This document shows positions 2,009 through 45,507 of a stretch of DNA of 64,000 nt, in pieces (position 1 is the first letter of the stretch; the number at the start of each line of letters is the position of its first letter). The position numbers were made by a program, and so were the translations under genes. The DNA comes from Zootoca vivipara. Lineage: Eukaryota. The notes beneath the pieces are model-generated. The model did no database searches. It worked only from the letters and a program-made list of their open reading frames with translations, and was not told where the DNA came from. The DNA lies in the NCBI RefSeq assembly GCF_963506605.1, contig NC_083276.1, forward strand, positions 82,274,001 through 82,338,000, in the 5' to 3' direction.

Positions 2009-2944
2009 TCATCTTATTAGCACCAATGGTCTCTTCAGAGCATGTTTCACATCCTTGTTCCTCAGGCTATATATCAGGGGGTTAAGCATGGGCATTATAA
2101 TGGTATAAAACAAAGCAATCACTTTGTCCCCGTCTCGTGAGGACTTTGACCTTGGTCGCATGTACATGAAGATGGCTGTCCCATAAAATATGGCGACGAC
2201 AGTGAGGTGGGATGCGCAGGTAGAGAATGCCTTGGCCCTTCCTTGGGCAGTTTGTATCCGCAGCACAGCTAAGAATATGTAGGTGTAGGAGACAATAATT
2301 AACAGGAAGGGAATGAAGACTATGATGATGCTGAAAACAAAGACAACCATTTCAGCAAGGTAAGTGTCGGTGGAAGCCAAAGACAACACTGCTGGCACCT
2401 CACAGAAATAATGGTTCAAGACGTTGGGACCACAGAAAGGCAATTGTAAGGTGAAAATGTTAATAATCATGGAGCTCATCAAACTGCTGCACCAGCAAAA
2501 AGCAGCCAGCAGAGCACAAAGCTTCCAGTTCATGATGGCTGTGTAAAGCAAAGGCTGACAGATGGCCACATACCGATCATAAGCCATGACGCCAAGCAGA
2601 AAGCACTCTGTCATGCCAAACGCCAGGGAAAAATACATCTGGATCGCACAACCCCAGAATAAGATAGTTTTCCTTCTGGTCACAAGGTTCACCAGCATCT
2701 GGGGGACATTGGTGGAGACATAATAAATGTCCAAGAAAGACAAATTGATAAGGAAGAAGTACATGGGGGTATGAAGCCGAGGGTAAACTCTGACAACTGA
2801 GATGATGACGACGTTCCCAAACACTGTGAGCAGGTAACAAGCCAGAAACACCACAAAGAGCACCAGCTGCACCCTTGGATGATCGGAGAACCCCAAAAAT
2901 ATGAACTCGGTCACAAATGTTTTGTTGCAGCCAACCATTTTCAT
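2009..2944 (-). CDS. Olfactory receptor, family 2/13-like (positional candidate for OR2AH1 ortholog), intact 311 aa
   Basis: [27 protein letters not shown] and [12 protein letters not shown] motifs; N-terminal NKT sequon; acceptor ...cctcctcacag at 2956 and donor AAG/GTAAGT at 3141 suggest a 5' UTR intron. Confidence 0.96.
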   Translation of the reverse strand: MKMVGCNKTFVTEFIFLGFSDHPRVQLVLFVVFLACYLLTVFGNVVIISVVRVYPRLHTPMYFFLINLSFLDIYYVSTNVPQMLVNLVTRRKTILFWGCAIQMYFSLAFGMTECFLLGVMAYDRYVAICQPLLYTAIMNWKLCALLAAFCWCSSLMSSMIINIFTLQLPFCGPNVLNHYFCEVPAVLSLASTDTYLAEMVVFVFSIIIVFIPFLLIIVSYTYIFLAVLRIQTAQGRAKAFSTCASHLTVVAIFYGTAIFMYMRPRSKSSRDGDKVIALFYTIIMPMLNPLIYSLRNKDVKHALKRPLVLIR

Positions 2945-3677
2945 TCACATTTAATCTGTGAGGAGGATAAGGGAAAACAGCTGATTAAGTGAAGTGCAGA
3001 ATCAGCACCCAGTGACATATATTGTTCTGGGTCTTTGATGCTCACTGAAGTGATGAGAATGGCAACCCTTGCAAATTTCCTTGTACTCTATGGATGTTCC
3101 ACTGCAGGGGGGACGGGGGACAGACGGTGATGATGACTTACCTTTCCGTGAGAAGAAAACACAATGCAGCTCTGTGTCTTAATGATAGTGTTTTAAATGG
3201 AGACCAGGAAGTAGCGTTTCAACGATGGGGTGGATGCTAAATTTAACTATTATTGATGTTCCAAGACCTCTCTTCCAATTTCTTGGCAGTTTTCTTTCTC
3301 TGCAAAAGAGACTTCTGTTTTTATGTCTCATTTGCAGGTGACTTTAGAATGCTTTTATGCTTCCAGTAAGTATGGGGTTCCACCCCCCACCCCCCGATTA
3401 AATATTTCTCCACTGCTCTGTTGCTTCCATGTTCTGCTTCCTAATCTGAAAAAGTGCAAGGGAGGAGCTGCTCTATGATGTCTTCCCTGTATGGAGAAGT
3501 GTAGGAAACCAGGAATCAGGTTACTAAGAGCCTCAGAATTTTGGTGTTATTTTTTATTATTAAAAAAAAAGGAAGTCCTTTCTTTCATCTTTCAAAATTC
3601 CCTCCCCTATTTCTTTAACAGTAGAAGAGACTTCATTTGAAAAACAGCAACAATGTATAGCTGTCAGAAGCATGGTG

Positions 3678-3771
3678 AAATAAAAAAATTCCTTCAGTAG
3701 CACCTTAAAGACCAACTAAGTTTATATTTTGGTATGAGCTTTCGTGTGCATGCACACTTCTTCAGATACCA
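3678..3771. mobile_element. Short Penelope-like retroelement stub
   Basis: GTAGCACCTTAAAGACCAACTAAG...GAGCTTTCGTGTGCATGCACACTTCTTCAGATAC motif; flanked by the 12-bp direct repeat agaagcatggtg (3666-3677, 3772-3783). Confidence 0.6.
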
Positions 3772-4204
3772 AGAAGCATGGTGGACAGCTTCCCCACCTT
3801 CCAGCACTTACAGGAAAGCTGAACCAAAGATATTATGAGATTTTGAGGAAGCAGCCCCCCCCCCGGGAAGGCTGCAAGCCACTAGAGAGATGCTTTGTAC
3901 AATGAAAGAAAGGAAAGCCATACAAACACCCCTTGAAAGTAAGACAAGCACAACAACCCCACACCTCAAACTTTTCTCTCCCCTTTGATAATTTTCAAGT
4001 GTAATTTCTTTTCTGGTTAATTTATAGGATGCTCTGAAAATCAGAGGAAAGTGTTGGTACAGCACAAGTTTCTAGGTCCTAGCCATAAGTCAGTTGACTG
4101 CAGGAATTCATTAGTAAGGGAAAGGATGAGCGGACAGGCCCTGCAAAATTCCAGACTGTATTTCATGAATACTTATGCAGTAATCAGTATGTTAGTTTTT
4201 AAGG

Positions 4205-4294
4205 CATAGCTGTCAGGTTTTCCCTTTTCTCGCGAGGAAGCCTACTCAGCATAAGGGAATTTCCCTTAAAAAAAGGGAGAACTTAACAGCTATG
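4205..4294. mobile_element. 90-bp hAT MITE
   Basis: TIRs CATAGCTGT/ACAGCTATG; 8-bp TSD ttttaagg; second copy in opposite orientation at 35665-35754. Confidence 0.8.
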
Positions 4295-5078
4295 TTTTAA
4301 GGTACTACAAGACTTTTTGTTAGTGTGCTGCAACAAACCTAACACAGCTATCCTTCTGGAAATTGTTGTATACGGAACTAGTTCCCAGTAAAAAACATAG
4401 TGCACATTGGTGACTTCCTGTTGTTATTAAAGGAGCAAACTAAATAAACTAAAAGCATTAGCATTTTGCCCCATTTTCGCAACACAGTTAGGAAGCAGTT
4501 ATATTACCTGGAGTTCTGTAATTGCCCTGCTGCTTCCCAGAAACACACCCCACAAAAAACCCCCAAAAACCCACAACCCAACCCAACAAGCTCTGAGCTG
4601 AAAAGTTACTGCCAAGGATCCTTTCTTACTCCTCCATTATGTTACTGCAGAGAAAGAAAGAAAAAACCAGGATGGAAAGCAAAGGTTATAGAAAAGTAGG
4701 AGAAGCACTGGGGATTTGATGTCTCTGAAGAGTCACCTCACATTAGTCTGTTACAGCAAACACATACAAAATATTGTGACACAATAAAAGAGGGGGCTTG
4801 GAACCTCTGGTTGTGAGCCAAATAAGGCCTGGTGGGGGTTCCAGTTTGGCCTGCCAGGCCATTTTCTCCAAACCACATCCACTTGCCCCACACCTGATGT
4901 CATGTGCACAGCAGGTAGAGATGTGATAGCAGATTGGGGGCCAAAAAGTGTGCTTCCAATTGCTTCTTTGCAAATGAGTCTAGTTGTCAGTGATGATCAG
5001 TGATGATGACAACAAGCCCCCTGGGTTCCTCTCTGAAATTTAGAAATACTTAAGCCGCTTCTCTTCAGAGAGAGGCAG

Positions 5079-5809
5079 GGTTGCGCATGGGCCTTGTGCT
5101 TTCCGCCTTTCAGCTGGGGACGTGTTTAGGCCCCCGCATCACAGGGAGCCCTGGTGCGCATCATGACCACAGCTGGCCAATCTGGCTGTCTGGGGTATGT
5201 GGCTTGCCGCATCAAAGCGGCCATGCACTTAGGAGATCTCCCTCTTTAATCTGGGCTTCCACGGATCTCCTGCCCTCCTGCCCTTTTTTCTGCCATTCTT
5301 CACCTTGACCTTGCTATGGACTTCGGTTGGTCGCCTGGTAGGAGTTTTTCCACTTGGCAGATTGGCATCAGCCACTTGGTTTTCACCTACCTTGTAGCAA
5401 ATCATCACAACTTTGTAAGGTTAGGCGGTTAGGTATTGGAAAAGCTTGGTTTTTGGGAGGGGAGGTTGTGACCATCACCTACCCCTCCCCTTTAAGGGTA
5501 TTCTGTTAAAGGAATCCAGGGGTCGTGGTTCCTGTCCGGAGCCTGGGTAGTGGCTAGGGCCATGACATGATCTTTCCGGTTACCCTGGGGGAGCTCCTAG
5601 TTGGTGTACATTAGCAGGGCTCCCCCTACAGGTGGTTAACCCTTGTGAGACTTCCTGCATGGTGGACAAAGGTCAGATATAGTCGGTTCGGGTCCAATGC
5701 CTAAAGCCAATACCACTCACATTCTGTAACCGGTAAAAGTCGTGGCCTTCTTTTTGCCGATTAACCTAAAATATCAGTGTCCATGTGTTTTGGGCCTTGA
5801 CGTGCAACA
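5079..5809. mobile_element. Probable solo LTR (Gypsy-like)
   Basis: About 730-bp GC-richer block with termini GTTGCGC...GTGCAACA; no clear TSD. Confidence 0.4.
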
Positions 5810-7997
5810 ATAGTTTAAATAGAAATACATGTCAACTTAGAGAAGCTGTGTGCCAGGTGACTTGAGTGCGCACTCATTCTGCTGCCCAGGTGCTAAGGAT
5901 CTTGGGCAATTTCAAGCCCCTTTTCTCTCTTATTTTCTCTCATCTTAAAATGGGCTTGGGTTGGGGAACCATTCAAATAGAAGACTCCATCAAATAGTAT
6001 TGATTGATTGATTGAATTTATATACCGGCCTATACCTGGTGGTCTCAGGCCAGTTCAGAGGTCTCAGGCCTTCTGAGGGTTGCCTTCTGACTTCAAATAT
6101 AGGAATGCCCTCTGTAAATTAGTACACATGGCCACTATATTTAGTAGTAGGCCTCTTTGTGGAGCAGGGGTTGTTTGAGGATCAGGCTTGGCTAGTCTTA
6201 TAGCTATGAGCATCTTTCTGTCACCAATGGTAACTAATGTGGTGCCCTCCAGATGTTGTTGGACTACAACTCCCATCATCCCTGACCATTGGCCATATTG
6301 GCTGGGACTGGAGTCAACAATATCTGGAGAGCACCATATTGGCTACTCTGGGGAAAATTCCCCTTGAGGGGTTCAAGTATGGAGGCCCACACCAAATTCC
6401 AAATCAGGCAGACTTTATTCAGTAATGCACAATTACAGGACAGAATCCTAAGAATCTTCAATGTATTGCCACTGGGATCCACACTATGTAGGCAACTATA
6501 GACATCATTTTAGTTGTTCACCCTCTACCCAACGACCTGATGCTACCCCAGCACTTTGTCATCTTTCATCCAGCCACAGTCCATGAAATGACCACCTCAA
6601 AACATTTGCAGGAGCAAACAGTATTGAAAGCAGGATTGTGTATGACTGTCTTGAGAGCATCATGAGCACAAATCATCAGGAATGTGTGTAGAATTGGTCT
6701 TTTGAGAAGCAGCCGTACCTTTATCTCAGTGACTGTTGTTATGCTGCATCTTTATGAGGATGCAGAACATATAACTTTACTATGCATTTTTAGCACCATT
6801 TCCCACCACTGGGCTACCCTCCATTTTTGATGCAAGCCTCACATAACCCAGAGTCACATACCGGTAGATCTCCCATAAGTAGCTTGGGAAATAAACCCAA
6901 AAACTTTTAGTGAGTGTAATGTAGTAAGTAGAACTTAAATGATTACTAAGGCTTCAATCCTACACACATACCTGAAAGTCTCATTGAGCTCGATGAGACT
7001 TACTTCTGCATAGCAAAGGATTGAGCTATTAGCTCACCTCTTGATGTAATTTTTCTGGAGTGTTTTTTATAGTTCTTTTTTCTGTCCTGACATAGTCCCT
7101 AATATATTTTGACGAATGAAAGGAAACCATAAAAATTCTTCAGACATTTTTGTTGGCTCCAGACCAAGTTAATCACACTTAGTCCCACTAAAATAAATGT
7201 GAAAGCTTTGTTATGACCATCTTCAGTTCCATGAATACCAACGAGACATAACTGTAATTAATTTTCTCAGACTCCAACTCTTTGGGTACAGAAAAATGTG
7301 AATCAATATAATACTCTCTTAAACTGTTTGCTTTATGTATGGCTCCTCATCGCTCTGCAAGAAAAATTGAGGTAGATAAAAAATTCTAATAACGTTTTTC
7401 ATAAATAAAAACATTTGAAAGTAAAATATTATCATTAACTCTTTTTTGTTTTGAGAATAATTGTGTGTGTGTGTGTGTGTGTGTTTAGTGGAAAATATTG
7501 GGAAATATTGTAATTATTCCAAAACTTGCATTATATTCATAGAGCCACATACATGGAAACAAATATCACAGCTCGTAATGGAAACAAGTCTTCTTCCTTC
7601 TCTTTCTTTAGTATCATAAAATAGCTATTATTGTGTCCTGTAAACCTCTATAGAATCTTGCACAATATTATATTGCAGCATACGACATTGAATGTTTCCC
7701 TCCTCGTAGTGTTTTGAACTTAGCATGTCACCACTGAAGGCTGCCCTGCCGCTTCCCCCCAGGGAAACTCAACATTTAGCGCTGAATCAGAACAAACAGC
7801 AATTGAGTTTTCCACAGGTTACTGTTTGTTCAGATTTAGCACCAAAGAGTGGTTTTTCTGGAGGACAGCGGGAGGCAAAGGCAAAATCATTTGGACCCAT
7901 GCCTATAAAGTCTGGGACAAGTGGAAAACTGCCCAGACCTGTGTTTTCTAGGCAGAAGACAAGCAGAAGTGACTAGAAAGAGCACTGAGAGAAGATG

Positions 7998-8865
7998 TTA
8001 CTGGGATAAAACTTTCTTGCTGACAACTCTTCTAAAAGCTTCCTTCACATCTTTGTTCCTAAGGCTGTATACTAGAGGATTGAGCATAGGAATCACAACC
8101 GTGTAGAACACAGAGGCCCATTTGTCCTGATCTAATGAGTAACTGGATGTTGGTCTCAGATACATAAACATAACTGTCCCATAAAAGAGGGTGACTCCAG
8201 TGAGATGGGAGATAGGAGATAAGGATGATAAGGATGGTGCTGAACTCGATGAAGCCACAGAGGCTGAAGAGGAGGATCTCACTCATGTAGGTGTCAGAGC
8301 AAGACAATGCAAGGAGTGGGGGGATCTCACAGAAGAAATGATTGATGATATTGGAGCCACAGTAATCTAAGCTGAAAGTCAGGCTAGTATGGGACACCAG
8401 GCTTATTAGACCTGCTACGTAGGAACCAATAGCCAGTACCAAACAAACCTGCTTTGACATGACTGTGGTATAATGGAGAGGACGGCAGATGGCCACATAG
8501 CGGTCATATGCCATGGCAGCCAAGACATAGCATTCAGCATCCACAAAGCCTACAAAAAAGGCAAACTGTGTGGCACAGCTGGAGAAGGAGATAATTTTTC
8601 GCTGGCGTAAGAAGTCAGCCAGCATGCGTGGGGCAATGGCAGTAGAGTAGCCCAGGTCCACGAAGGAGAGGTGGCAAAGGAAGAAATACATGGGTGTGTG
8701 GAGTTGCTCATCTACGGTGATCAGGAGGATCATGCCCACATTGCCTACCACATCTGCCAGGTAGATGAAAAGAAAGACCACAAAGAGAGCCATTTCTAGG
8801 CGTGGATTATCTGTGAAGCCCAAGAAAACGAACTCCGTCACCTGGGTATGATTGCCCTCAGCCAT
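7998..8865 (-). pseudogene. OR5AR1: OR5AR1-like olfactory receptor pseudogene (~71-bp frameshifting deletion at 8210/8211)
   Basis: ATG at 8865 just after acceptor ttgtcttcag; N-terminal frame ends ...ILISY and the C-terminal part [11 protein letters not shown]...[10 protein letters not shown] is in another frame; the 24-codon TM5-ICL3-KAFSTC segment is missing; [29 protein letters not shown] and [20 protein letters not shown] match recalled mammalian OR5AR1. Confidence 0.9.
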
Positions 8866-9878
8866 CGTGGCTGAAGACAAATGGGGGGGGGGGTCTTTGG
8901 ATCCAGAGAGAAGACAGAAGACACTACTTGAGTCAGAAGAAATGCTTTGTAGTGTAGAGCATTAGAATGGGAGAAGAGGCAGTTTGCCCCGCTGGACAGA
9001 GAATATGGCACTCCTTCTGCAACTGGGTCCACCAATCACTTCAAGTCCCCTTAGTCAATGTTATGAAATGAACATAAACTATCACTTTCGGTGTTTCTTC
9101 CTAAAGAAAAGAAAGCAGTTATTTTATTATATGGGACCACACTATATAAAATGGAGGATAGTATAATAGTTAAACATTTTTATTCATGAGTTTCCTAGAT
9201 TGGAATCAAAGCATGCCTTAGTTAAAGCCACAGATAGAATATGCTGCTTTAAAAGGTCTTGACCATTATTTGCTCCATTTCTTACAGGATCCCAATAGAT
9301 TGAATAATTTTTTTCATATACTTTGCATGTGGATCTAGAAAAGTGTAGCCAGAGAGTGCAGTAAAAAGGGAAACACATCCAGCGGCACATTTGTGCAGCT
9401 GGTGCAGTTGATTGAGGATATGAAGTTTCTGCAATCATTTCCACCATGGCAGATAGGATTAGGCTAAAGAATGGGACTTCTGGGTGAATAGCTCCTATAA
9501 GACACTCCCTCTCCTCTTTTCCTGACATAGGAGGAGTCTGGTGTTATGAGAGATCTTCCACAAATTTCCCTCAAATCACTAATCTGTGGGAGAAGGGGAG
9601 AAAGCATCTATACTCTCCTGATGTTACTCTTCTCCTGCTACCATCTCTTCTTCCTGAGAGCTAATTGATCTTCTAGTCTTCTGCCCAACCTCCCCTGAGA
9701 GAACCATGAGAACAGCACAGGGCCTGGAACTTTCCATTCTCCTACTAGTTCACTTGGTTATATCCATGGTCTCTGTAGCACCCTGTTTGCCTGACTTATT
9801 CCAGATTCCATTTTATATTTTGGCTCTTCAACTGAAGTAAATATTCCCTGTGCAGATCCCTCTGAGTTGTTAGCTGTG

Positions 9879-10411
9879 CCAGGTGGCGCTGTGGTTAAAC
9901 CACAGAGCCTAGGGCTTGCCGATCAGAAGGTCGGCGGTTCGAATCCCTGTGACGGGGTGAGCTCCTGTTGCTTGGTCCCAGCTCCTGCCAACCTAGCAGT
10001 TCGAAAGCACGTCAAAATACAAGTAGATAAATAGGAACCGCTACAGCGGGAAGGTAAACGGCGTTTCCATGTGCTGCTCTGGTTTGCCAGAAGCAGCTTT
10101 GTCATGCTGGCCACATGACCTGGAAGCTATACGCCGGCTCCCTCGGCCAATAATGCGAGATGAGCGCGCAACCCCAGAGTCGGTCACAACTGGACCTAAT
10201 GGTCAGGGGTCCCTTTACCCTTTACAGCGGGAAGGTAAACGGCGTTTCCATGTGCTGCTCTGGTTTGCCAGAAGCGGCTTTGTCATGCTGGCCACATGAC
10301 CTGGAAGCTATACGCCGGCTCCCTCGGCCAATAATGCGAGATGAGCGCGCAACCCCGGAGTCGGTCACGACTGGACCTAATGGTCAGGGGTCCCTTTACC
10401 TTTACCTTTAC
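9879..10411 (+). mobile_element. Sauria SINE with tandem-duplicated 3' half
   Basis: tRNA-like head (GGTGGCGCTGTGG...GGTTCGAATCCC) and (ACCTTT)n tail; 181-bp duplication 10042-10222 / 10223-10403. Confidence 0.9.
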
Positions 10412-10459
10412 TATAAAAGAAGATAATGACCCTGAGATTGTCCTGATTTTGAATATATA

Positions 10460-10745
10460 AACATTAAGAAGCTAAGCAAACCCCTGCTGGATTAGGATGA
10501 AGTCCTCTTAAATTCAGCATTCTGCTCTCACAGCAGCCAAGCAGATGCCTATGGAAAGTCCAAAAGCAGGACATGAATGAAATAGCACTCTCCTCACTTG
10601 TGATTCACAGCATATAGTATTGCTGCCTGTAACAGTGGAGGTAGAACATAACCACTGTGCAGAGCAGCCACTGATAGTCTTTTCTTCCGTAAATTTGTCG
10701 AATCCTCTTTTAAAGCCATCCAGGTCAGTGGCCATCACTGCATCT
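10460..10745 (-). mobile_element. CR1 LINE 3' fragment
   Basis: Minus ORF MATDLDGFKRGFDKF resembles the CR1 ORF2 C-terminus, followed by 3' UTR. Confidence 0.6.
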
Positions 10746-11812
10746 TACTCACCAGGCATTTTAATCTGACTACCCTTGGAAGAGCACAGCATTGTGGGTT
10801 GTTAAATATTGTTGTGCCCATCTGTTGCCCATTTCTAGCAGTAAAACAAACAAACAACAACAACAACAACAACAACAACTGCTTTCAGGAGATTCTTGCT
10901 TGGATTTCAATGTCAACTTGAGTAAGAATTATAAGCAAGATGGAATCTCTAGCATGGACGATGTTTGCTAGGGGGTTCCTCAAGCAGAAACCTTGACTTC
11001 TTAAATTTCCAAAATTCCCTCATCTACTTACACAACCTTGAACCCCTCCTGCTTTGAAAAGCTTTATCCCACCTGGAAGTCAGATGCTCAGTCCGTACTT
11101 TTGCCCCCTCCTCTGCTTCTTAGCTATTGTAAACTGGCAAGTCAGAAAGGTGGTATTTATTTATCCAGCTTAGATGGCTGATGCAAGGATTACATAGCTC
11201 CACAGGAACCCATTAAAAATACTTCTCAAGGGTACCCCTCCCCTTGTCACTTTCTCCCTTCCATCCTTACAGAGATAATTAAAGATGTTAATTGAAGTTC
11301 TTTCTCTTGAACCTTTCCTCAGCAACACAAATTTTGTGCTGTTATACAGAAAATTATACCTAGAATTGACTCAGTCCCCCCAATATGTCCTAGTATCCTC
11401 CTCAGCCAAATGTGGATGGTGCTTCCTTTGAAGTTCCTTTTCTGGAAGTAGAGTATCTCATAATTAAAACTGTCATGGATTCCTCCAAAGATCATTGAAA
11501 TTATATTTTGAGTGGATACTTAATGAGAAGTCATTGTTAGACATTGATGTTCCCCACCTCACAGAACTACAACTTCTTCCATGATTCTCTGGAGAAAGGG
11601 AACGACTACCTAAATACTTTAAGTATATGATGTTATATACCATAGCCCACCAGCCTATTTCTTTTAAACCTAAAGTTGGAAGCTTAGTCCTATGCCGTAG
11701 TCCTCCTGCATTTCTGAATATATCCACTGAGGGGTGAGAGACTCTGTGTTGGCCAGCAGGTACTGTAATGGCTTTTCCACCTTTGTCCCATCCTCAAGCC
11801 CTAGGAACTTTC

Positions 11813-12005
11813 NNNNNNNNNNNNNNNNNNNNNNNNNNNNNNNNNNNNNNNNNNNNNNNNNNNNNNNNNNNNNNNNNNNNNNNNNNNNNNNNNNNNNNNN
11901 NNNNNNNNNNNNNNNNNNNNNNNNNNNNNNNNNNNNNNNNNNNNNNNNNNNNNNNNNNNNNNNNNNNNNNNNNNNNNNNNNNNNNNNNNNNNNNNNNNNN
12001 NNNNN
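11813..12005. other. Assembly gap
   Basis: Run of N. Confidence 1.
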
Positions 12006-12236
12006 GACCCTGTTTGCTATCAGGAGTTGGTTGGTTTCACCTTTGCCACCCCACCTCTAGCCCGAGGAACCTTCAGAAGGGAGTTGCTGCTGCAGGCATT
12101 ACGTATGTGTATGTGTATTCTAATGAGCTGAACAGAGTGAAAGATTATGAGTCATAGGGGTGGGAGTGTGTGTGTGTGTGAACATAACAGTGCTTAGTTT
12201 ATTTTCTGGTTGCTATTTTGTTAAGTGTTCTGACTA

Positions 12237-15915: not shown

Positions 15916-15956
15916 TAGTTTTCTGCGTTCACTAGTGTCGCAAATAGCATGTAACA

Positions 15957-22246: not shown

Positions 22247-23194
22247 ATGCAAGAGGGGAACAGGACCCAGGTGTCTGAGTTCGTTCTTTTAGGATTCACA
22301 GATCGTTCTGAAGTGGAGATACCCTTGTTTTTGCTCTTTCTACTAATCTACCTCCTAACAGTGATGGGAAATCTGGGTATGATTGTGTTAATACAGACAG
22401 ATCCCGTTTTGCAATCTCCAATGTATTTTTTCCTCAGCAACCTATCCTTCATTGACATTTGCTACTCCTCCACTATCATTCCCAGGCTGTTGTGTGACCT
22501 CCTTACAGAGAGGAAGGTGATTTCATACAACGCATGTGCCACTCAGATGTGGTTCTTCAGCGTATATGCTACAACAGAGTGCTACCTTCTGGCTGCTATG
22601 GCTTATGATCGCTTTGTTGCCATCTGCAAACCACTGATTTATCCTATTTCCATGGCCAGAAATGTGTGTCTTCAGCTTTTGGCTGGGTGCTACCTGGTGG
22701 GACTTTTTATTGCCACTGTCCACACAAGTGGTGTCTTTAGACTCTCCTTCTGTGGTCCTAATGAAATCAGTTCCTTCTACTGTGACATCCCTCCTTTGTT
22801 GCGGCTCTCCTGCTCAGACAACTATGTTTCCAAGGCTGTACTCTTCGTCCTTTCCACTTTTGTTGTGGTAGGGAATGCAATTATTGTTCTTATCTCCTAT
22901 GGTTACATCATCTCCACCATTTTGAGGATGCAGTCATCCACAGGAAGACAGAAGACCTTCTCAACCTGCGCCTCACACCTGACTGCCATTGTACTGTATT
23001 ACGGGTCCTTGACCTTCATATATGTGCAGCCTGGAGGCATTGAGGCAGTGGAGCATGAAAAGATTGTGTCTGTCTTCTACACCATTGTGATCCCCATGGT
23101 GAACCCCGTCATCTACAGTCTGAGGAACGAGGAGGTGAAAAGAGCCCTGAAGAAAAGACTGAGTAAGAAAATCTTTCACCAGGGGCCACAGTAG
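22247..23194 (+). CDS. Olfactory receptor, family 5/9-like, intact 315 aa
   Basis: [39 protein letters not shown]; NRT sequon; acceptor ...taattttag at 22209. Confidence 0.96.
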   Translation: MQEGNRTQVSEFVLLGFTDRSEVEIPLFLLFLLIYLLTVMGNLGMIVLIQTDPVLQSPMYFFLSNLSFIDICYSSTIIPRLLCDLLTERKVISYNACATQMWFFSVYATTECYLLAAMAYDRFVAICKPLIYPISMARNVCLQLLAGCYLVGLFIATVHTSGVFRLSFCGPNEISSFYCDIPPLLRLSCSDNYVSKAVLFVLSTFVVVGNAIIVLISYGYIISTILRMQSSTGRQKTFSTCASHLTAIVLYYGSLTFIYVQPGGIEAVEHEKIVSVFYTIVIPMVNPVIYSLRNEEVKRALKKRLSKKIFHQGPQ

Positions 23195-26318: not shown

Positions 26319-27248
26319 ATGGAGAATTACACCACAACAACTGAGTTCATCCTTCGTGGACTGACAGATCAGCCAGAACTGAAGATTCCCCTCTTTGTGA
26401 TTTTTCTAGGGATCTATGCTGTCAGCATCGTGGGTAATCTAGGAATGATTGTTTTAATAGGAATTGACTCTCGACTTCACACGCCCATGTATTTTTTCCT
26501 TTGCTACCTATCCTTTGTTGACTTCTGTTACTCCACCGTCATCACTCCCAAGATGCTGGTAAACTTTGTAGCTGATGCTAACATCATTTCATTCCGTGGA
26601 TGTGCAGCGCAGTTCTACTTCTTTGGCTCATTTGCGGGCATCGAGGGTTTCCTTTTGGCGGTAATGGCATATGACAGGTACAATGCCATTTGCAACCCAC
26701 TCCTCTACAAGGTGATTATGTCATGGAACGTCTGCAGCTACTTAGTAACTGCCTCCTTTCTAGCTGGATTTATAAATGCAGCAATTCACACTTATTTCAC
26801 GTTCCACCTACACTTCTGTGATTCTAACATCATCAACCACTTCTTCTGCGACACGCCCCCTCTCCTCGCACTCTCTTGCACTGACATACACATCAACCTG
26901 ATCATCATTTTTGTCTTTGCCAGTTTTAATGAATTAAGCTGCCTCATCACAATTCTTATTTCCTACATCTATATCCTCTCTGCCATCTTACGGATCAGCT
27001 CCTCAGAAGGGAGGCGCAGAGCTTTCTCTACCTGTGCTTCCCACTTACTGGCAGTCACCATATTCTTTGGAACGATCCTGTTCATGTATTTGAGACCCAG
27101 CTCCAGCCACTCTATGGACCAGGACAAAATAGTCTCTGTCTTCTACACTGTGGTGATTCCCATGCTGAACCCACTGATCTACAGCCTGAGGAACAGGGAG
27201 GTAAAAGATGCTCTGAGAAAAGCTGTGCATAGGAAAGCTGTGTTTTAA
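26319..27248 (+). CDS. OR5AP2: OR5AP2-like olfactory receptor, intact (alternative in-frame ATG at 26286)
   Basis: All OR motifs present; [30 protein letters not shown] and [16 protein letters not shown] match recalled OR5AP2; the ORF-track 5' extension lies upstream of the acceptor. Confidence 0.92.
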
Positions 27249-32898: not shown

Positions 32899-33846
32899 TC
32901 ATTTACGGTGTATATTAGTAAAATACTTCCCTACCAGTCTCTTCATGGCATCCTTGACCTCCTTGTTCCTTAGGCTATAGATCAGTGGATTCAGCATGGG
33001 AATCACCACTGCATAAAACAAAGACACTATTTTGCCCCGTTCTGGGGACAGGCTAGAAGGACGCCTGATATACATGACGAAAACTGTCCCATAAAAGAGG
33101 GTGACAGCCATCAGGTGGAAGCCACATGTGGAGAAAGCTTTGTACCTACCCTCAACAGAGGGTATCCTCAGGATCGTAGAGAGAATGAAAATGTAGGAGA
33201 TTAGAATAACAACAAGGGAGCTGATGAGGTTGAAACTGGCAGAAAGTAACATTAGGGTCTGTTTGACATGGGTGTCAGAGCAGGACAGTTTCATGAGAGC
33301 TGGGTCAGCACAGTAAAAGTGGTTGATGACATGGGAGCCACGAAAGGTCAGGCGGAAGGTGAATATGGTCTGTATCATGGCATCTAGGAAAGCATATGCC
33401 GAGGGAACTGCCACCAGCCACATGCAGACCTTCCATGTCATCTTCGTGTGATACATCAGTGGGTTGCAGATAGCTGCATACCGATCATATGCCATGACGG
33501 CCAGGATGAAGGATTCTGTGAGACCCAGAGCAATGAAGAGATAACACTGTATCAAGCATCCAGTAAATGAAATGTATTTGTGGCCTGTAACTAAATTTGC
33601 CAACATCCGAGGTGTGACATTGGAGGAATAGCAAAAGTCTATAAAGGACAAGCTGCTGAGGAAGAAGTACATGGGGGTGTGGAGTTGGGGATCCATCTTG
33701 ATTACTGTGATTGTCCCCAGATTTCCCACAACAGTAATCATATAGACCAGCAGGAACAAAACAGAGAGTGGGAGCTGCAATTTAGGATACTCTGCAAATC
33801 CCAATAGAATAAATTCAGATGCTGATGTACTATTCCCTTTCACCAT
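32899..33846 (-). CDS. OR5M-like olfactory receptor, open 315-aa frame with eroded motifs
   Basis: [15 protein letters not shown] and HFYCADP are OR5M-type; ATG at 33846 downstream of acceptor tgtctttcag (33910); atypical FRGS, CADPAL and STCGFHL. Confidence 0.9.
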   Translation of the reverse strand: MVKGNSTSASEFILLGFAEYPKLQLPLSVLFLLVYMITVVGNLGTITVIKMDPQLHTPMYFFLSSLSFIDFCYSSNVTPRMLANLVTGHKYISFTGCLIQCYLFIALGLTESFILAVMAYDRYAAICNPLMYHTKMTWKVCMWLVAVPSAYAFLDAMIQTIFTFRLTFRGSHVINHFYCADPALMKLSCSDTHVKQTLMLLSASFNLISSLVVILISYIFILSTILRIPSVEGRYKAFSTCGFHLMAVTLFYGTVFVMYIRRPSSLSPERGKIVSLFYAVVIPMLNPLIYSLRNKEVKDAMKRLVGKYFTNIHRK

Positions 33847-35392: not shown

Positions 35393-35497
35393 TGTTGTTG
35401 TTTAGTCGTGTCCGACTCTTCTTGACCCCATGGACCATAGCATGCCAGGCACTCCTGTCTTGCACTGCCTCCCGCAGTTTGGTCAAACTCATGTTCA
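35393..35497 (-). mobile_element. BovB 3' stub
   Basis: Matches the BovB 3' end; 11-bp TSD tatacaattct. Confidence 0.85.
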
Positions 35498-35664
35498 TAT
35501 ACAATTCTATTGTAAGTTAAACAAGCAAAAATACAATGCAAATCAATATTTCCAATTTAACAAAACACAAGCCTCCAGGTTAGCAGGGCTGTCAGATAGA
35601 GATGTGGAGATGGATTTGCTGCCCCGCCATCTCTCTTCTCCTTACTTGTTGGCACCGACAGCAT

Positions 35665-35754
35665 CATAGCTGTCAAGTTCTCCCCTTTTTTAAGGGAAAT
35701 TCCCTTATGCTGAATAGGCTTCCTCAAGAGAAAAGGGAAAACTTGACAGCTATG
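35665..35754. mobile_element. 90-bp hAT MITE
   Basis: TIRs CATAGCTGTCAAGTT / AACTTGACAGCTATG; 8-bp TSD gacagcat. Confidence 0.85.
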
Positions 35755-37696
35755 GACAGCATTCAGGGTCTTCCAGGGTCTCGGGAGGATGTCTGTAGCA
35801 TTTCTCCTTAAACAGGGAACAAACACAGTTTCTTCATGGTATGGAGATAGAAGCATAATTGTTAGGAATCCAGGCATGGCCACACCTTCATTAAGCAGCA
35901 TTTGGGCTAATGGCTTGGCATGGCTGGGAAATAGTTCCTCATTACCTAGGGATGTTTTGAATGCAGAAAACTATCACTTGAGGGCAGGTGTATGTGTTTG
36001 ATGGAACAATCACACTCCCACTCTAGGGTGGGGGCAGGTTTGCCATACCCTACTCCCTCATAAAAGAAAACTCAGGTTGGGTTTTCTTCTTCCTCAGCTG
36101 TGGTGAACGAGGCCAGTGTGGGGATGGCCCAGCTTATAAACCAGCTCCTCCCCAAACTGAATCAATCAGTCAATTATCAATCAATCAATTTATTACAGTC
36201 ACAGACCAGAACGGCCTCAAACTGTGTGGTACACACCCTTCCTGCCTTTGTACAGTGTGAACTTTGCTAGATGCTTGTTGAAGGGACTGAGTAGCAGTTC
36301 TTGGTAGAGCACTAAATTGGCCTGGGATTTGGCCTCGTTTTCACCTACTTTACTCTGCTGGGAGTTCCTTGTTTGGAGTGGAGTTCCTTCTTTGGTTTAA
36401 TCTGGCCTGTAGTCTAGGCAGCAAAGTGGAATTAAGATCTTTTTGAGTAAATTCCTGAGGCATTATGCAAGGCATTATGGTTAAATGCACTCCTCGGTCT
36501 GCTTCCATTGCAATTGCTTTGTGGGTTATTGAGGGTGTCATGTAGCGAATGTACTAGGGAGAACATCAAACCAGTGGGCTGTGATGCAATGTTTGGCTCA
36601 AAAACCCAAGGCCCTGGTAGCAAGGAGGAAGTGTTTCCTCAATATTTGCTGTGGGGTCATAGGTCGTACCTGACGATATGCCCAGGAGCAAGGAGGGATA
36701 TGATCTCTCCATCAATGAGGAACTTTCCTGCTTGGATTATTTGATTTGGTTGATCAGTTCAATTTTCTATTTGGTTATTGCAGATCCTCTTGTTGTTTTC
36801 ATATTTTAATAAATATAACATCCCCCCACTTTAGTATTGTGCCCTGAGTCTTCTTTTGGGGTACAATGGCAATAGGAGCATTTTTGGAACAGAAGATGGG
36901 GAATGGGAAACACAGGACAGAGAAGCAGAAACTCACCTTTGAGCTCTAGAAGCTCATTTGCATTGCAAGTGTCTCTGGTGATTGAAATGAAATTCTGCCC
37001 TGCTAGAAGGATGAAAGCTGCCTGCCTCCAGCTATGTTCTATTTGTATATTTCCACATATACTTTTTATTTTTTATCTTCTTTTTTTTAACAAAAAGTCA
37101 TAAGTTTTCAGTGGTCTCATCTCCCGAACTCAGGTAAGTGCTTCTGCTTGGAAGCTCTAACCATGTGAGGAAGTAGGGAGCATATAACAATATATAAACC
37201 ATCTCTATTTTGTCTTGATTAGCAAGCTTAGGAAGAATGTAGGCTCATGTTCATCTCAGCTTTCTGTCCCCTAGTTGTGCAGTACTGCAGTTATGGTTAA
37301 CATTATGGTCCATAGCCACTCAGATATCATTTGTATCATCTGGTTATTTGATGTAGGTGGATATGGCATGATCTAGTAAGACTCCACTTCTGGCTCCTCA
37401 TCCCCAATTCAGAACAAATCTTCATCTCTACATTATGTGCTGCAGGGGTTGCCAGCCTTTTTGAACCAATGGGTACATTTAAAATGTTGAGAGTTCTGGA
37501 GGCAATGGTAAAAAAAACAACTGTTATGGCATAAGACAAAATGGCTGTCATGGGGAGCGTAGCCAGAAACAGCAAAAGAGATATGGCTACCCCTCAACAA
37601 AGTTATGCTTATTATGGACAATCAGCTACTGCATGTTGTGTTGGTTTTGATTCTGGAAATCACACAATATTGGTTTTACATGTGTGTGTGTGTGTG

Positions 37697-37733
<37 letters not shown>

Positions 37734-39243
37734 GTCCCGTCGCTGTCTAATGGCAACAGGGGACATTCTTCAGTAGGAAAAATATACAGTATATACAATG
37801 TAGCCACACCAACACTCACTGTACATTTTGTCCCATAACTTTCATTTTTGGAGGGCTACAGACTTACTTTTTCAAGAAATAAAGTATGAAAGCTCAGAGA
37901 CAGCAGTGAACCCTTCGAAGGCATCATGGCTCCTGTACGTTCCAGGATGGCAAACTCTGATCTTCTGATTCATATTAGTTCAAAAGGCCATACCACTATA
38001 GTCTAATTAAACAGGAAAGGGGGCACATTTTCATTGTCAACAACAGCTGCCATGAATCCGATGGAGAGCAGTAATTTGACTCTCAGGGCTCTAGAGGACA
38101 ACAAGTGGAGCAGAAGAGCCATTCCAGAGACAATCTCCCTGGGCTCATAGATGAATATAAAGCCTTCTGCTTCATTCAGCTGCCGGTGCTCTTGGGAGTC
38201 TGTGGAATTGCCTCTTTCCTCATTCAGGTAGGTTTTACCAGCATCCATTGCCTATATTTGGGTGTGGGACATCTTATATCAATGGAGGCATTCAACCTAA
38301 CATCCATTGGACTCTATTTCTATAGCATGGTGTGTTGAGAAAGACTGCCACTGTGCAGTGGTCCCATCTGTTTCTGAAGTAGCTGCAGTTAGATGTGTCC
38401 ACCAACAGCAAGATTTAGCTTGGACCCTGATTCAGAACTGTGGGAAAACAACAGACCTCAGTCTGAAGTAGTTTGTAGAGTTGGCGATTCAGTCAGAAAA
38501 AATATACCTTTTAATTATTATTTTAGGGTAGGAATGGATGAGATTTGCAGGCAAAGTCATCTGCTAAAGAGGGCACAGAACCTGTCAAATTTTAGTGTGG
38601 TGTGGTTTTCCCTGCAGCTTTACTGTTTGAAAGTGGGTAAAAAATAATCAACCTCGTCTGGGTTTTTTGAGTAGTTGGTCTGAAATGACCGCTCCCCACA
38701 TCAAATGGGGAGCGCCTTTTGCCTGGTCGTGCGCAGCTCCCCAGATACCTCTGATGATCAGATGTTGGAGCTAAACAAGGCAGAATAGCATTCACACGCT
38801 TTTTTTAGGTCACATTCTAAATGCATCTGTTTGGCTAGTGTGAGAAAGAAAATACCGAACTAGATGGTGCTTTTTGTGTTCTTATTCTCTGTGTAGTCTC
38901 CTCCCTCATATAATACTAACCTTTTCCAAATTTATAAGTTTGTGCATGTGTGCATTTTAACTATGATTCTATTATTCATTCCCTTTTCATTCAGGTAGCA
39001 CAAAGTCTATTATGAAACAAAATGTGTTGTCTTCAAGCTAGTTCTGTTGTGTGTTAAAACAACGGAGATAAAAAGGACTCCAATATCCTCATTCGAATCA
39101 CACACAAAAGCAGAAGAGGTTTGAGACCACAGAATAAAACCAGAGAAGAATATTGCTTCACCAGCACATCAAATAATAAGTCTGCTTTCACATTCTTTGT
39201 GTGTATGTTCCTTTCGTTTTCAGAAGATATTATAAATGTGTGG

Positions 39244-40181
39244 ATGGCTGAAAGAAATAACACAATTGTATCTGACTTCATTCTTTTGGGTGTCACAAAT
39301 CGTAGAGAGCTGCAGTTTCCTCTTTTCATGGTGTTTTCAGTTGTTTACATTATCACCCTTCTGGGGAATCTGGGGATGATCACATTAATAAAGATGGACT
39401 CCCAACTCCACACTCCCATGTACTTCTTCCTCAGCAGCCTGTCCTTTATAGACCTCTGCTATTCCTCCAAGTCACACCTCGGATGCTGGCCAATTTTGTA
39501 GCAGACTATAAAGTCATTTCCTTTACTGGATGTTTGATACAGTGTTATCTCTTCATTGCACTGGTGCTTACGGAGTCCTTCATCCTGGCCATCATGGCAT
39601 ATGATAGGTATGTAGCCATCTGCAACCCGCTGCTCTATACCACAAAGATGTCATGGAAGGTTTGCATGTGGCTGGTGGCAGTTCCCTCTGCATATGCTTT
39701 CCTAGATGCCATGATACAGACCATATTCACCTTTCGCCTGACCTTCTGTGGCTCCCATGTCATCAACCACTTTTACTGTGCTGACCCACCTCTCATGAAA
39801 CTGTCCTGCTCTGACACCCATATCAAATTGACCCTGATGTTACTTTCTGCCAGTTTCAACCTCATCAGCTCCCTCGCTGTTATTCTGACTTCCTACACCT
39901 TCATCCTCTTCACTATTCTGAAAATTCGCAATGCCGGAGCGAGGTACAAAGCTTTCTCCACATGTGGCTCCCACCTGACAGCTGTCACCCTTTTCTATGG
40001 GACACTCTTCGTCATGTACATCAGACGTCCTTCTAGCCTGTCCATAGAACAGGGCAAAATAGTCTCTGTGTTCTATGCCGTGGTGATCCCTATGCTAAAT
40101 CCGTTGATCTACAGCCTAAGGAACAAGGAGGTCAAGGGTGCCTTGAAGAGATTATTGCAGAGGAAAGTGTTCTTGCATTAA
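39244..40181 (+). pseudogene. OR5M-like olfactory receptor with a single 1-bp frameshift (39470/39471)
   Basis: Reads TCC TCC AA- GTC ACA CCT CGG ATG where the paralog has TCC TCC AAT GTC...; restoring one T gives a complete OR with canonical motifs. Confidence 0.9.
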
Positions 40182-40804
40182 ATGTCTATTCGTTCACTAG
40201 TTATGAAATGAAAAGATCCATGAGGCAGATGTTTCCACCATATGGCAAAGAAGAGGGAATATGAAATTTTACAGCTTATGAATGTTTAATATGTGGTAGA
40301 TGAGTTCTTGCACCTTGCTGTCAGGTTTCTTCCTTCCCTCCCCACTTTTCTGATTCAATTTTGGTTGTTGGTTTCTATCTCCATAAAATATTGACAGTAT
40401 GCCCCAAATATAACATAGTATGTCTCACTCATCATCAGCATCTAATTTTCAGATCCACCAGTTCTTCAAAACTGAAACAGGGTGATTGGGTGGACGTATT
40501 GCTTACACACTGCAATGGCACCTAATGGGTGGGTGAAAGGCTCTTTGCAGCCTCTTCTGAAACTTCTGACTTACATTTTAACCCTCAAATTGTGAATCTC
40601 CTGGGGAAAAGGAGAAACTTGGAGTCAGCCCCTGGTATGGAATCCTCCTTACACCTGCAAGGAAACAGTGATGCTCAAAGTCTAGCCTGGTGTCTTTTTC
40701 TCCATGAGCCCCTAACTTCATGAGACCATCAACTACAATGAAGAAATGAGTATCTTTATCCTATCGGTGTTACTTCTCATCAATAATTTATCATTTTGGT
40801 TGTA

Positions 40805-41051
40805 CAGTGGTACCTCTACTTACGTTACGTTCTGAACGCACATTCGTAAGTCGAAAAAAATTGTAAGAATTTGTAAGTCGAATCCCATAGGTATGCATTG
40901 GGAGAAAAAATTCGTAAGTCGAAGCAACCCTATCTAAAAATTCATAAGTAGAAAAAATCCTATCTAAACCGCATCCAAGATGGCGGACGGAGATCCGTTC
41001 GTAAGTAGAAACATTCGTAAGTAGAGTTATTCGTAAGTAGAGGTACCACTG
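40805..41051. mobile_element. Tc1/mariner-type MITE
   Basis: TIRs CAGTGGTACCTCTACTTACG / CGTAAGTAGAGGTACCACTG; TA TSD. Confidence 0.88.
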
Positions 41052-41842
41052 TATATACACTAATCTTTATTTGGCTCTCCAAGAAATTCATCTCATGGTG
41101 TTAATGTGAGGTGGTATTAATGTTACAATTGGCTGATTAGATTTTACAATGTTCAGGGAGGGCAGACAGCTTTTCCCTTTCCATGGTCTTATGAAAAGAA
41201 TGCTCCTTCTATTCATGTGGATATAGAGTTTCCCTCCGCCCCACCCACAGACCATTTGTTTGCACCACAAGTTCCTTAGTCTTTCTGAGGATGCTTGTTT
41301 AGGAATGATAGGGGCTGGAGTGGGAGGGAGTAGTTGGGGATGTGGAATTTGTAATAGAACACACACGTTATATTTTAGTGATGGCCCTGGGCCTGTATAT
41401 CATTATGGAATTCCTCTTTTGTCGTGGCTGATGTCTATAGTGTTTCACTGAAGGTACAAGGCTTAGATGATGTAATCAAGCAATGGAGGAACTCTGAGTA
41501 CATTAGGAGGCAGAAGCCCTATATTGGTTTGTTTTTTCCTGCAGGAGACACATGATGCATCTACAAGCAGTAGCCTCTTATCCTACTCATACCTTAGCAA
41601 ACATTATATGGCTCCAGGTAATAAGCAGTCCAGAGGTGTTACTAAAACCATGTCCTAATCTCATGTTCCCCAGTTACCTAAGTACTGTGGACCCCATATT
41701 TTTCAAAAGCCAAGCCACAGACCTCCTACTTTTGAAAACTGTGATATCTTTATGGTAGTTGTTGTTATGTGAATGGTGCCACGGACCCCCTGGGTGGGTT
41801 ACATGGACCCCTTGGGTCTGCGGACTACCATCTGGGAACCAC

Positions 41843-42322
41843 AGTTCAAGAAGGATACTGATGAGCTGGAACGTGTCCAGAGGAGGGCAACCAAAATGGT
41901 CAAAGGCCTGGGAACAGTGCCTTATGAGGAACGGCTTAGGGAGCTGGGTATGTTTAGCCTGGAGAAGAGAAGGTTAAGGGGTGATATGATAGCCATGTTC
42001 AAATATATAAAAGGATGTCATATAGAGGAGCGAGAAAGGTTGTTTTCTGCTGCTCCAGAGAAGTGGACACAGAGCAATGGATTCAAGCTAGAAGAAAGAA
42101 GATTCCACCTAAACATTAGGAAGAACTTCCTGACAGTAAGAGCTGTTCAGCAGTGGAATTTGCTGCCAAGGAGTGTCATGGAGTCTCCTTCTTTGGAGGT
42201 CTTTAAGCAGAGGCTTGATAGCCATCTGTCAGGAATGCTTTGATGGTGTTTCCTGCTTGGCAGGGGGTTGGACTGGATGGCCCTAGTGGTGTCTTCCAAC
42301 TCTATGATTCTATTATTCTAAT
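41843..42322 (+). mobile_element. CR1 LINE 3' fragment
   Basis: ORF LERVQRRATKMVKGL...YEERLRELGMFSLEKRRLRGD; ATTCTATG-like tail; 10-bp TSD tgggaaccac. Confidence 0.92.
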
Positions 42323-43006
42323 TGGGAACCACTGTCCCAATCGTTTAATTTTCAGGACCTATGGGGAAGGGTTTTATGTGTTGCTGGAATGTTAGGTACC
42401 CCCACTCTCTTATTTGCATCGGTTTAAACACTGGTTCTGTTTTACAAACACAATGGAAACCATTTGTTAGGCAATTGTTTGCATAACAAGTCAATGATTT
42501 TCACTGATTCCTATTAGAAAAATTCTAATACACTTTTGACTATGCAATCTGTAGTGCATATAGTGAGGCATGGGTACTAATTCATTTGTTCAGATAAGTG
42601 AATTTTCGCATAGCAAGCGTTTGTAAAATGGGACCTGAGTGTTATCTTCAAAACAATTTTTGCAGGCAATTTGAATGCTATCTGTAGTAAGCATTTGGAT
42701 AGACTTCCCAATGTGTCTCTTGGCAGCTATTCTGGAAATAAATGTATATTTCCACTCTTAAACAGATACAATCTAAAAATGGATGGTGTCAGATAAATCA
42801 GGGAGCAAGCTTTCACACATATTTATCTCTGAAATTTCATTCTTATTCAGGAATGAATTTTCTTTTTGATCTCTGTCTCCCTAATTTTGATTTTATTGAA
42901 CATAGAACCCATGACTCTATCTGATCACTCCCCTATAAGGCCTCTTTACAAATACAGGGCCCCATTATCCCTGACTCAATATGGTGGTTGCATACATTCC
43001 TGCTGT

Positions 43007-43465
43007 TGTTGTTGTTTAGTCGTTTAGTCGTGTCCGACTCTTCGTGACCCCATGGACCATAGCACGCCAGGCACTCCTGTCTTGCACTGCCTCCCGCAGT
43101 TTGGTCAAACTCATGTTCGTAGCTTTGAGAACACTGTCCAACCATCTTGTCCTCTGTCGTCCCCTTCTCCTAGTGCCCTCAATCTTTCCCAACATCAGGG
43201 TCTTTTCCAGGGAGTCTTCCCTTCTCATGAGGTGGCCAAAGTATTGGAGCCTCAGATTCACGACCTGTCCTTCCAGGGAGCACTCAGGGCTGATTTCCTT
43301 AAGAATGGATAGGTTTGATCTTCTTGCAGTCCATGGGACTCTCAAGAGTCTCCTCCATCACCATAATTCAAAAGCATCAATTCTTCGGCGACCAGCCTTC
43401 TTTATGGTCCAGCTCTCACTTCCATACATCACTACTGGGAAAACCATAGCTTTAACTATACGAAC
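43007..43465 (-). mobile_element. BovB LINE 3' fragment
   Basis: BovB ORF C-terminus and (CAA)n tail; 13-bp TSD acattcctgctgt at 42994-43006 and 43716-43728. Confidence 0.92.
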
Positions 43466-43470
43466 ATTTA

Positions 43471-43704
43471 CCGTGTTTCTCATATTATAAGACACGTCTT
43501 ATATTTATTTTTTCCTCAAAAAAACACACTATGGCTTATTTTCAAGGGATGTCTTATTTTTTTCCTCCTCCTCCTGCTGCAGCCGGCATTGCTACTGCGC
43601 CTATCACTATGTCTTATTTTCGGGGTATGGCTTATATTCCTTGAATGCTTAAAAATCCTGTATGGCTTATTTTATGGGTATGTCTTAAAATATGAGAAAC
43701 AGGG
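43471..43704. mobile_element. Tc1/mariner-type MITE
   Basis: TIRs CCGTGTTTCTCATATTATAAGACA / TGTCTTAAAATATGAGAAACAGGG (22 of 24), TA on both sides. Confidence 0.8.
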
Positions 43705-43969
43705 TAACTATACGAACATTCCTGCTGTACCACAAGATATTGCAGAGGCAATCCAAATGGCTATAACAAATTACTTTGCTGACAATGTGTAAAGGTGGTG
43801 TTTCTGCTTTGCAGTAACACCTGTCACAGCCAGCGTGGTATTTACAGTCTTTATTACATATATACAAGAAACAGCTACAGTTCAGAATTACGTGTCCAAA
43901 CCCATTGAGTCAGATTCGGGGAGTGGCTTCCTACGATTCCCGCGCCAACAAAGTAGACGTGGGAATCAC

Positions 43970-44215
43970 ACGAGACTGTCTGGAAATGACCATCCACGTA
44001 GTACCACAACCACTGCAAAGTGGTGCTACTCACCCCTAACTTGGACAGCTGCTCCAGAAGTATACCATGGTCAAAGGCATTGAAAGCCACTGAGAGGTTA
44101 AGGAGAACTGACAGGGACACATGTCCCCTGTCTATCTCCTGACAGAAGTCATAATCCAGGGCAACCAAAGCAGTTCCTGTGTCAGAAGTGGGCCTAAACC
44201 CTTATTGAAATGGAT
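43970..44215 (-). mobile_element. L2 LINE RT fragment
   Basis: ORF DRGHVSLSVLLNLSVAFNAFDHGILLEQL resembles the degenerate L2 LLDLSAAFDTIDH motif. Confidence 0.7.
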
Positions 44216-44562
44216 TTCATTTCAAAAGAAATGATCAAAATCTATTAAATGTACACTTTAAGATAAAATATATTTAGAGGCACACATTTGACTGAACATT
44301 TTCTTGCAGATTTTTGAGAAGAAATCTATTAGTATATTAATGGGGAAAGGGAATTAAACGGCATTTTGAGTGAGCACATGTGGAAGTGACATAGACCAGG
44401 AAGAGATTGGTTTTTCTACCCATCCCTACATTGAGGCTCTTCCGTCTTGTCTCCTGTGTTGCTTTCTAGCACCACCTCCTTTTGGCCACTCCAGGCATAC
44501 ACACAACACCTTCCATTCTTTGCTTGAATAAAATACATTAGGAATAATGTTCTAAATATCCA

Positions 44563-45507
44563 TCAGTGGACAACCACTATTCTTTCTGTTGTTCTCTTCA
44601 GAGCATCTTTCACCTCCTTGTTTCTCAGGCTATAGATCAGAGGATTGAGCATAGGAATCACCAGTGTGTAGAAAACGGAAGCTATTTTATCCGTTGCTAG
44701 AGAGTGGTTTGTACTAGGTTGCAAATACATAAAGATCAGAGTTCCATAGAAGATGGTGACAGCAGTCAAGTGAGAAGCACATGTGGAGAAGGCTTTGAGT
44801 CGTCCCTGAGCAGAGCTGATTCTCAGAATGGCCGAGAGGATAAACGTATAGGAGATGAGAACAATGAGAAGGGAGCACAGCATATCAAAGCCAGCAAAAG
44901 CGTAGATCAGTATCTGCTTGGTGCTGGTGTCAGAGCAGGAAAGCGCTAACAGCGGGAGGTCATCGCAGTAGAAATGGTTGATCACATTAGCGGAGCAGAA
45001 GGACAAACGAAATGTAACGATGGTGTGGAACAAGGCAACACAGAAGCTGTATGCATAAGGGCCAGCTGCCAGCTGGAGGCAGACTCTCTGGGACATGACG
45101 GTCCGATAAAGCAGTGGGTTGCAGATGGCCACGTAACGGTCATATGCCATCACCGCCAGGAGAAAGCACTCTGTGATCATGAAAGTAAGGAAGCAGCCCA
45201 GCTGTGCTGCGCATGCATAGTATGAGATGGTTTTCTTAGCTGCTAAGAAGTTTGCCAGCATCTTAGGGGCAATGACAGAGGAATAGCAGAGGTCAACAAA
45301 AGCCAAGTGGCTGAGGAAGAAGTACATGGGGTTATGGAGGTGGCTATCAGTCCGGATTAGAAGGATGATCCCCAGATTGCCCATCACAGTGATAATGTAG
45401 ATCAGGAGGAAGATGACAAAGAGGGGGACTTGTAGGTCCGAGCGGTCGGTGAGTCCAAACAGAATGAACTCCTTCACTGTGGTCACGGTGTGATTGACAT
45501 CTGCCAT
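44563..45507 (-). CDS. OR5R1: OR5R1/OR8U3-like olfactory receptor, intact 314 aa
   Basis: Canonical motifs; [32 protein letters not shown] and [16 protein letters not shown] match recalled OR5R1 (OR8U subfamily); candidate acceptor at 45527 and donor at 46094. Confidence 0.9.

Follow-up and report, generated by a model that had tools for sequence, protein, structure and literature searches.

The window analysed here, a 64,000-nucleotide stretch of Zootoca vivipara DNA (NC_083276.1; positions 82,274,001-82,338,000 of the contig), contains ten olfactory receptor (OR) loci, labelled A to J. Seven of these (A to G) lie within positions 2009-45507 of the window, and those with recognisable mammalian counterparts follow the order of the OR cluster found at human 11q12.1, mouse chromosome 2 (85.6-87.5 Mb) and dog chromosome 18 (39-40 Mb). 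The arrangement reported in the original prediction, seven OR loci with an OR5AR1-like and an OR5AP2-like gene in divergent orientation, is present as described. In window coordinates the seven loci are:

OR A, 2009..2944, minus strand: intact, 311 amino acids (aa); orthologue of OR2AH1 by tree and identity
OR B, 7998..8865, minus strand: orthologue of OR5AR1, with a deletion and frameshift near 8208
OR C, 22247..23194, plus strand: intact, 315 aa; family-5-type, with no mammalian partner among the references used
OR D, 26322..27248, plus strand: intact; sister to mammalian OR5AP (the OR5AP2/Olfr1020 group)
OR E, 32899..33846, minus strand: intact, 315 aa; co-orthologue of the OR5M subfamily
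OR F, 39244..40181, plus strand: OR5M co-orthologue and inverted paralogue of E, with a one-base frameshift near 39470
OR G, 44563..45507, minus strand: intact, 314 aa; closest to OR8U3/OR5R1

A, C, D, E and G are single-exon open reading frames (ORFs) of ~310 aa encoding seven-transmembrane proteins, as expected of class II ORs, and OR A carries the Pfam domains PF13853 and PF00001. B and F read as OR pseudogenes.

The sequences used for comparison were the by-catch of three homologue searches (with B, A and G) and three look-ups of the cluster; 19 mammalian references entered the identity table, and the main maximum likelihood tree (LG+G4) was built from 59 of 165 rows, with support given below as bootstrap/SH-aLRT (the Shimodaira-Hasegawa-like approximate likelihood ratio test). 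All five named groups (OR2AH, OR5AR, OR5AP, OR5M and OR8U/8J/8K) had a bootstrap of 100 and an SH-aLRT of 94-100 in this tree, in line with the predicted grouping of the lizard genes, and the same five were recovered in a quick tree of all 165 rows and in a quick mixture-model tree of 87 rows. At the protein level, A, B and G were 70-82% identical to their mammalian counterparts, 6-19 percentage points above the next reference. Turtle, alligator and ratite proteins joined the A and G clades and an alligator protein also joined that of B, so these three lineages span the amniotes. The OR5AK3, OR8H and OR5B references had no supported lizard partner in the trees. Public gene models often fuse adjoining ORs, and many records are of ~510 aa.

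The clearest assignments were those of A and B. The identity of OR A reached 71% with mouse Olfr1018 (Or2ah1), 70% with dog OR2AH1 and no more than 52% with any of the remaining 17 references; in the tree it formed an exclusive clade with the first two proteins (100/100). OR2AH1 orthologues carry automatic names as varied as 2G3, 2B8, 2D3 and 10A7-like. OR B was 81-82% identical to mammalian OR5AR1 (next reference, 62%) and again formed an exclusive clade with it (100/99), from which the neighbouring paralogue Z19 was excluded. By this placement A and B come close to behaving as one-to-one orthologues, and they are the sole loci that clearly do. The reading frame of B matches intact Podarcis copies as far as codon 220, after which 23 codons and part of another are gone (~71 bp, as sized from the protein alignment) and the frame changes, leaving B without an intact reading frame in this assembly. 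Podarcis and Lacerta have intact copies of 309-312 aa, to which B is 98-99% identical, and the break probably reflects recent loss of the gene, allelic variation or a mistake in the assembly. A search of sequencing runs with gene B listed no RNA run, and the best run, which matched all sampled words, may be the assembly's own sample and so lends the deletion no separate backing. The deletion in B and the frameshift in F, as they stand in the assembly, may each be fixed, polymorphic or erroneous. Z19 itself (82,252,684-82,253,622; L018:8687-9622) has an intact frame and is the sister paralogue of OR5AR1; it is 65-70% identical to the mammalian proteins, with orthologues in alligator and other lizards and no mammalian member in the sample.

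The remaining loci corresponded to subfamilies or to no sampled mammalian gene. OR D was 67-69% identical to three references of the OR5AP group (next reference, 63%) and lay in a clade with mammalian OR5AP (100/94), which together with an identity above 60% places it in that subfamily; it was sister to the mammalian copies, and the tree did not divide OR5AP2 from OR5AP1 as its partner. E and F formed a clade (100/99), 84% identical over 227 aa, with one base missing from F near 39470, and this clade was sister to all six OR5M references (100/97) in a many-to-many relationship. Among the sampled rows, E and F are by this placement a lizard sister pair facing a separate mammalian OR5M radiation. 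OR G, at 71-78% identity to OR8U3/OR5R1 (next, OR8J3 at 65%), fell in a clade with mammalian OR8U/8J/8K (100/99). We take OR8U3 to be the newer name of OR5R1; a baboon 'OR5R1' grouped with the 1038/8U3 proteins in the 165-row tree. The approximately unbiased (AU) test rejected a grouping of OR8U3 by itself with the sauropsid G proteins (p-AU 0.02), but no longer did so when a bat '1044' protein was included (p-AU 0.2); in the tree used for that test mammalian 8U/8J/8K formed one clade at 97. G is probably a pro-orthologue, the single lizard slot for the whole of mammalian OR8U/8J/8K. OR C was at most 53.5% identical to the 19 references and grouped with another lizard gene, Z36 (94/87); an ESM Atlas query with C returned generic OR clusters only. 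The possibility that C is a second OR5AP gene was rejected (p-AU 0.036 for a clade of C, D and OR5AP). The one-to-one orthology foreseen in the original prediction was borne out for A and B only, with C lacking a partner among the references, D being sister to a subfamily, E and F many-to-many and G closest to OR8U3 but standing beside the OR8U/8J/8K radiation.

The mammalian order was taken from published tables. In human, the relevant rows run OR8K1 (+), OR8J1 (+), OR8U1 (+), OR5AL1 (+), OR5R1 (-), the OR5M genes (mostly -), OR5AP2 (-), OR5AR1 (+), OR2AH1P (-) and OR9G1 (+) (Barnes 2020, PMC7055050, supplement 2). The rows for mouse and dog give the same order, and there are matching rows for rat, cow and chimpanzee (Olender 2020, PMC7160942, supplement 1); Olfr1018, Olfr1019, Olfr1020 and Olfr1038 correspond there to Or2ah1, Or5ar1, Or5ap2 and Or8u3. 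The order from OR8U1 to OR2AH1P given in the original prediction was therefore confirmed by the human, mouse and dog tables. All five named groups occur in the lizard in the mammalian order, as do seven of seven tree-supported anchors when OR9G and OR5J, outside the window, are counted. If orientation is fixed, the chance of an exact match is 1/120 with five anchors and 1/5040 with seven; if either direction is allowed, it is 1/60 with five. Since placement in a tree is independent of position on the chromosome, the groups support the match in order.

Strand was less well conserved. With OR5AR1 set to minus, as in the lizard, the human and mouse genes read OR2AH1 plus, OR5AP2 plus, OR5M mostly plus, OR5R1/Or8u3 plus and OR8U1/8J/8K mostly minus. 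In this frame B, D and F have the same strand as in human and mouse, whereas A, E and G are flipped, that is, three of the five matched loci besides B, although G agrees in strand with the majority of the mammalian genes it groups with (OR8U1/8J1/8K1). The comparison of order and strand thus came out in favour of the original prediction for order (5/5) and only in part for strand. Dog has OR2AH1 copies on both strands in the Olender 2020 rows (PMC7160942). A Tasmanian devil gene model (P0313, 654 aa) joins an OR2AH gene to an OR5AP gene, which implies a common strand for the two there, as in mouse. The divergent arrangement of OR5AR1 and OR5AP is common to the human, mouse, rat, dog, cow and chimpanzee rows (PMC7160942, PMC7055050) and is shared by the lizard, in which B and D diverge with starts ~17 kb apart and C between them.

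The agreement continues outside the window. The 600 kb around it include 87 OR-like loci, spread from 82.173 to 82.666 Mb, and in 69 of these the ORF is 230 aa or longer. Z20-22, directly to the left of A, are OR9G genes (100/100), and Z46, to the right of G, is an OR5J gene (97/94). The names given by NCBI also fit the mammalian sequence, with 5G3-like at the left end and 5T7-like, 5I1-like and 4S2-like to the right; these name anchors, for which seven of ten look-ups were found (among them a gene called 10T2-like and another whose names disagreed), are weaker than the tree anchors. In mammals, LRRC55 adjoins the OR9G/OR5G end of the cluster. To the left of the first lizard OR lie APLNR (E = 1.8e-168), which demonstrates a non-OR flank in common with the mammalian 11q12.1 cluster, and a gene with LRRNT and LRR domains, which we infer to be LRRC55. 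A further gene near this flank may be TNKS1BP1-like. A list of human 11q12.1 genes begins with LRRC55, APLNR and TNKS1BP1 (PMC5485587).

Three loci in the window lie beyond G:

OR H, 51673..52608, plus strand: intact; pairs with I; no mammalian partner in the sample
OR I, 58379..59314, plus strand: intact; pairs with H; outside the OR5AP clade
OR J, 63763..64000, plus strand: start only, running past the window end; likely OR5T-related

The sister of J, Z33, is named 5T7-like by NCBI, and J groups with a hamster fragment (SH-aLRT 91).

These results suggest that the stretch is, very probably, the lizard counterpart of the 11q12.1 cluster in its ancestral order, kept passively while some of its receptors were under purifying selection. 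The shared order was likely in place before mammals and reptiles diverged. OR families evolve by birth and death, that is, by tandem duplication and local loss. Because both processes act in place, conserved order would need no selection on order: genes would be added by tandem duplication and removed by local deletion or frameshift, leaving the order of the surviving lineages unchanged, and small inversions would flip single genes only. Purifying selection is likely to have acted over the long term on the proteins of OR5AR1, OR8U3 and OR2AH1, although any of the three could be lost in one lineage. Birth and death of ORs by duplication and loss is described in Vandewege 2016 (PMC4825420). The high identity of the A, B and G proteins across amniotes points to purifying selection on them. 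Passive retention of the order is, by parsimony, likely, because A, E and G are flipped, an extra gene stands within the divergent pair, and human and chimpanzee (OR2AH1P), cow (OR5AP2P) and the lizard (B and F) each carry pseudogenes.

The same observations bear on the constraint on receptors or shared regulation put forward in the original prediction. One form of it would be that the order is actively constrained by Greek-island-type enhancers in the cluster or by control sequence common to the two genes of the divergent OR5AR1/OR5AP pair. That the order and the divergence of this pair are common to lizard, human, mouse, rat, dog, cow and chimpanzee would fit such control, and a passage in Olender 2020 (PMC7160942) raises the idea that common cluster ancestry might relate to common cis-elements. 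However, ~17 kb and gene C separate the lizard pair, three matched genes have changed strand, and a scan for three OR-enhancer motifs gave 0 sites in the window, with the cluster not clearly richer in them than the sequence on either side, which is a weak test. We therefore consider active constraint on order unlikely; with the three flips, the extra gene in the divergent pair and the pseudogenes in lizard, human, chimpanzee and cow, the predicted constraint on order or shared regulation was not supported, whereas constraint on the receptor proteins remains plausible at 70-82% identity. A more trivial account would be that slowly evolving, 'generic' family-5 ORs attract best-hit names such as 5AR1 and 5AP2 and that the order arose by chance. 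Naming by NCBI is indeed loose, in that Z02 is called '5AR1-like' and relatives of I are called 5AP2/1020-like, and none of these falls within the clades so named; we did not accept the '-like' names as establishing orthology. Against this account stand the 6-19 points by which A, B and G are clear of other references, the five groups at full bootstrap, the chance values of 1/120 to 1/5040 and the APLNR flank, so that it is largely refuted and we regard it as very improbable.

Returning to passive retention of an ancestral cluster, several observations weigh against it. To the right of the window Z42 and Z43, which group with a bat fragment (its name inferred) and a turtle '5AS1-like' protein (SH-aLRT 96) and are likely OR5AS1-related, precede the OR5J gene Z46, whereas in mouse and dog Or5j1 comes before Or5as1; this suggests a local inversion of these genes (L026-L029, 82.395-82.424 Mb). 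The identity of E and F to OR5M (54-62%, straddling the 60% subfamily cut-off) is barely above their 54-61% identity to OR8U3/5R1, and for E (54-60% to OR5M) identity by itself fails to tell the two apart. The mammalian references are partial, those for OR5AP and most of those for OR5M being pieces of fused gene models, and three of the ten ORs in the window (C, H and I) have no mammalian partner, with that of J being weak; the missing partners of C, H and I may be an effect of sampling, given the incomplete references. Finally, the ancestral order rests on two lineages, with one non-mammalian genome read, and the case for passive retention is one of parsimony.

Conserved OR clusters are known in mammals. 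As set out in Aloni, Olender and Lancet 2006 (PMC1794568), mammalian clusters in conservation (CLICs) have in common with the present case syntenic orthologues, conserved order and local duplications, inversions and deletions. Their formal definition requires that genes share a 100-kb alignment chain and be 72% or more identical in DNA, whereas our comparison was made on proteins and order. In that set of five mammals, chicken genes were reported in two CLICs only (the class I cluster and one singleton), and the authors did not decide whether the remaining clusters are of later origin or disappeared in birds (PMC1794568). The difference here is that the genes of a class II cluster can be matched one after another to those of a squamate, and the same order in the lizard favours loss in the chicken line over a later origin of class II clusters. 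Surveys of sauropsids describe lizard OR clusters and mammalian OR families that predate the mammal-sauropsid split (PMC4825420, PMC3342882, PMC2758906); they differ in working at the family level (Vandewege 2016), with no gene-order comparison with mammals in the parts covered, and the word 'synten' is absent from Steiger 2009 (PMC2758906), Dehara 2012 (PMC3342882) and Policarpo 2024 (PMC10869828). Deep single-gene orthology of ORs is already known, since 29-49 one-to-one ORs common to marine mammals and marine reptiles have been reported in a preprint (bioRxiv 10.1101/2025.11.03.686341), the main text of which contains neither 'synteny' nor 'OR5AR'. Our literature search, with subscription papers outside its scope, turned up no account in which this class II cluster is shown to be collinear, at the level of single genes, with that of a squamate. 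Thus, what is added here is the extension of a known mammalian cluster to a squamate, over a wider region than the original prediction covered. We consider it moderately probable that the amniote ancestor already had the complete class II cluster of 11q12.1, set out lineage by lineage between APLNR/LRRC55 and OR4; that squamates keep it in compact, near-ancestral form over ~0.5 Mb; that its core receptors (OR5AR1, OR8U3, OR2AH1, OR9G and OR5AP, ~67-82% identical) represent conserved odour channels; and that the large OR5M and OR8U/8J/8K radiations of mammals go back to one slot each. Position offers a basis for orthology where automatic names mislead, and the few deeply conserved receptors would allow ligands to be compared between lizard and mammal.

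Several minor features were noted in and around the cluster. It contains lizard-side tandem expansions, Z47-Z62 (L030-L040) and Z66-Z77 (L042-L046), with no mammalian partner in the sample. Within the window, ORFs between the ORs at 41773-42243 and 55199-55903 may be remnants of retroelements. Just past the OR4 end lies a fragment resembling a non-OR G protein-coupled receptor (82,678,473-82,679,168; L055:473-1168), which may be MAS/MRG-like. At the opposite end, beside the TNKS1BP1-like gene, a GC-rich tandem array with units of ~143 bp (82,085,300-82,087,500; L002) is visible as repeating ORFs.

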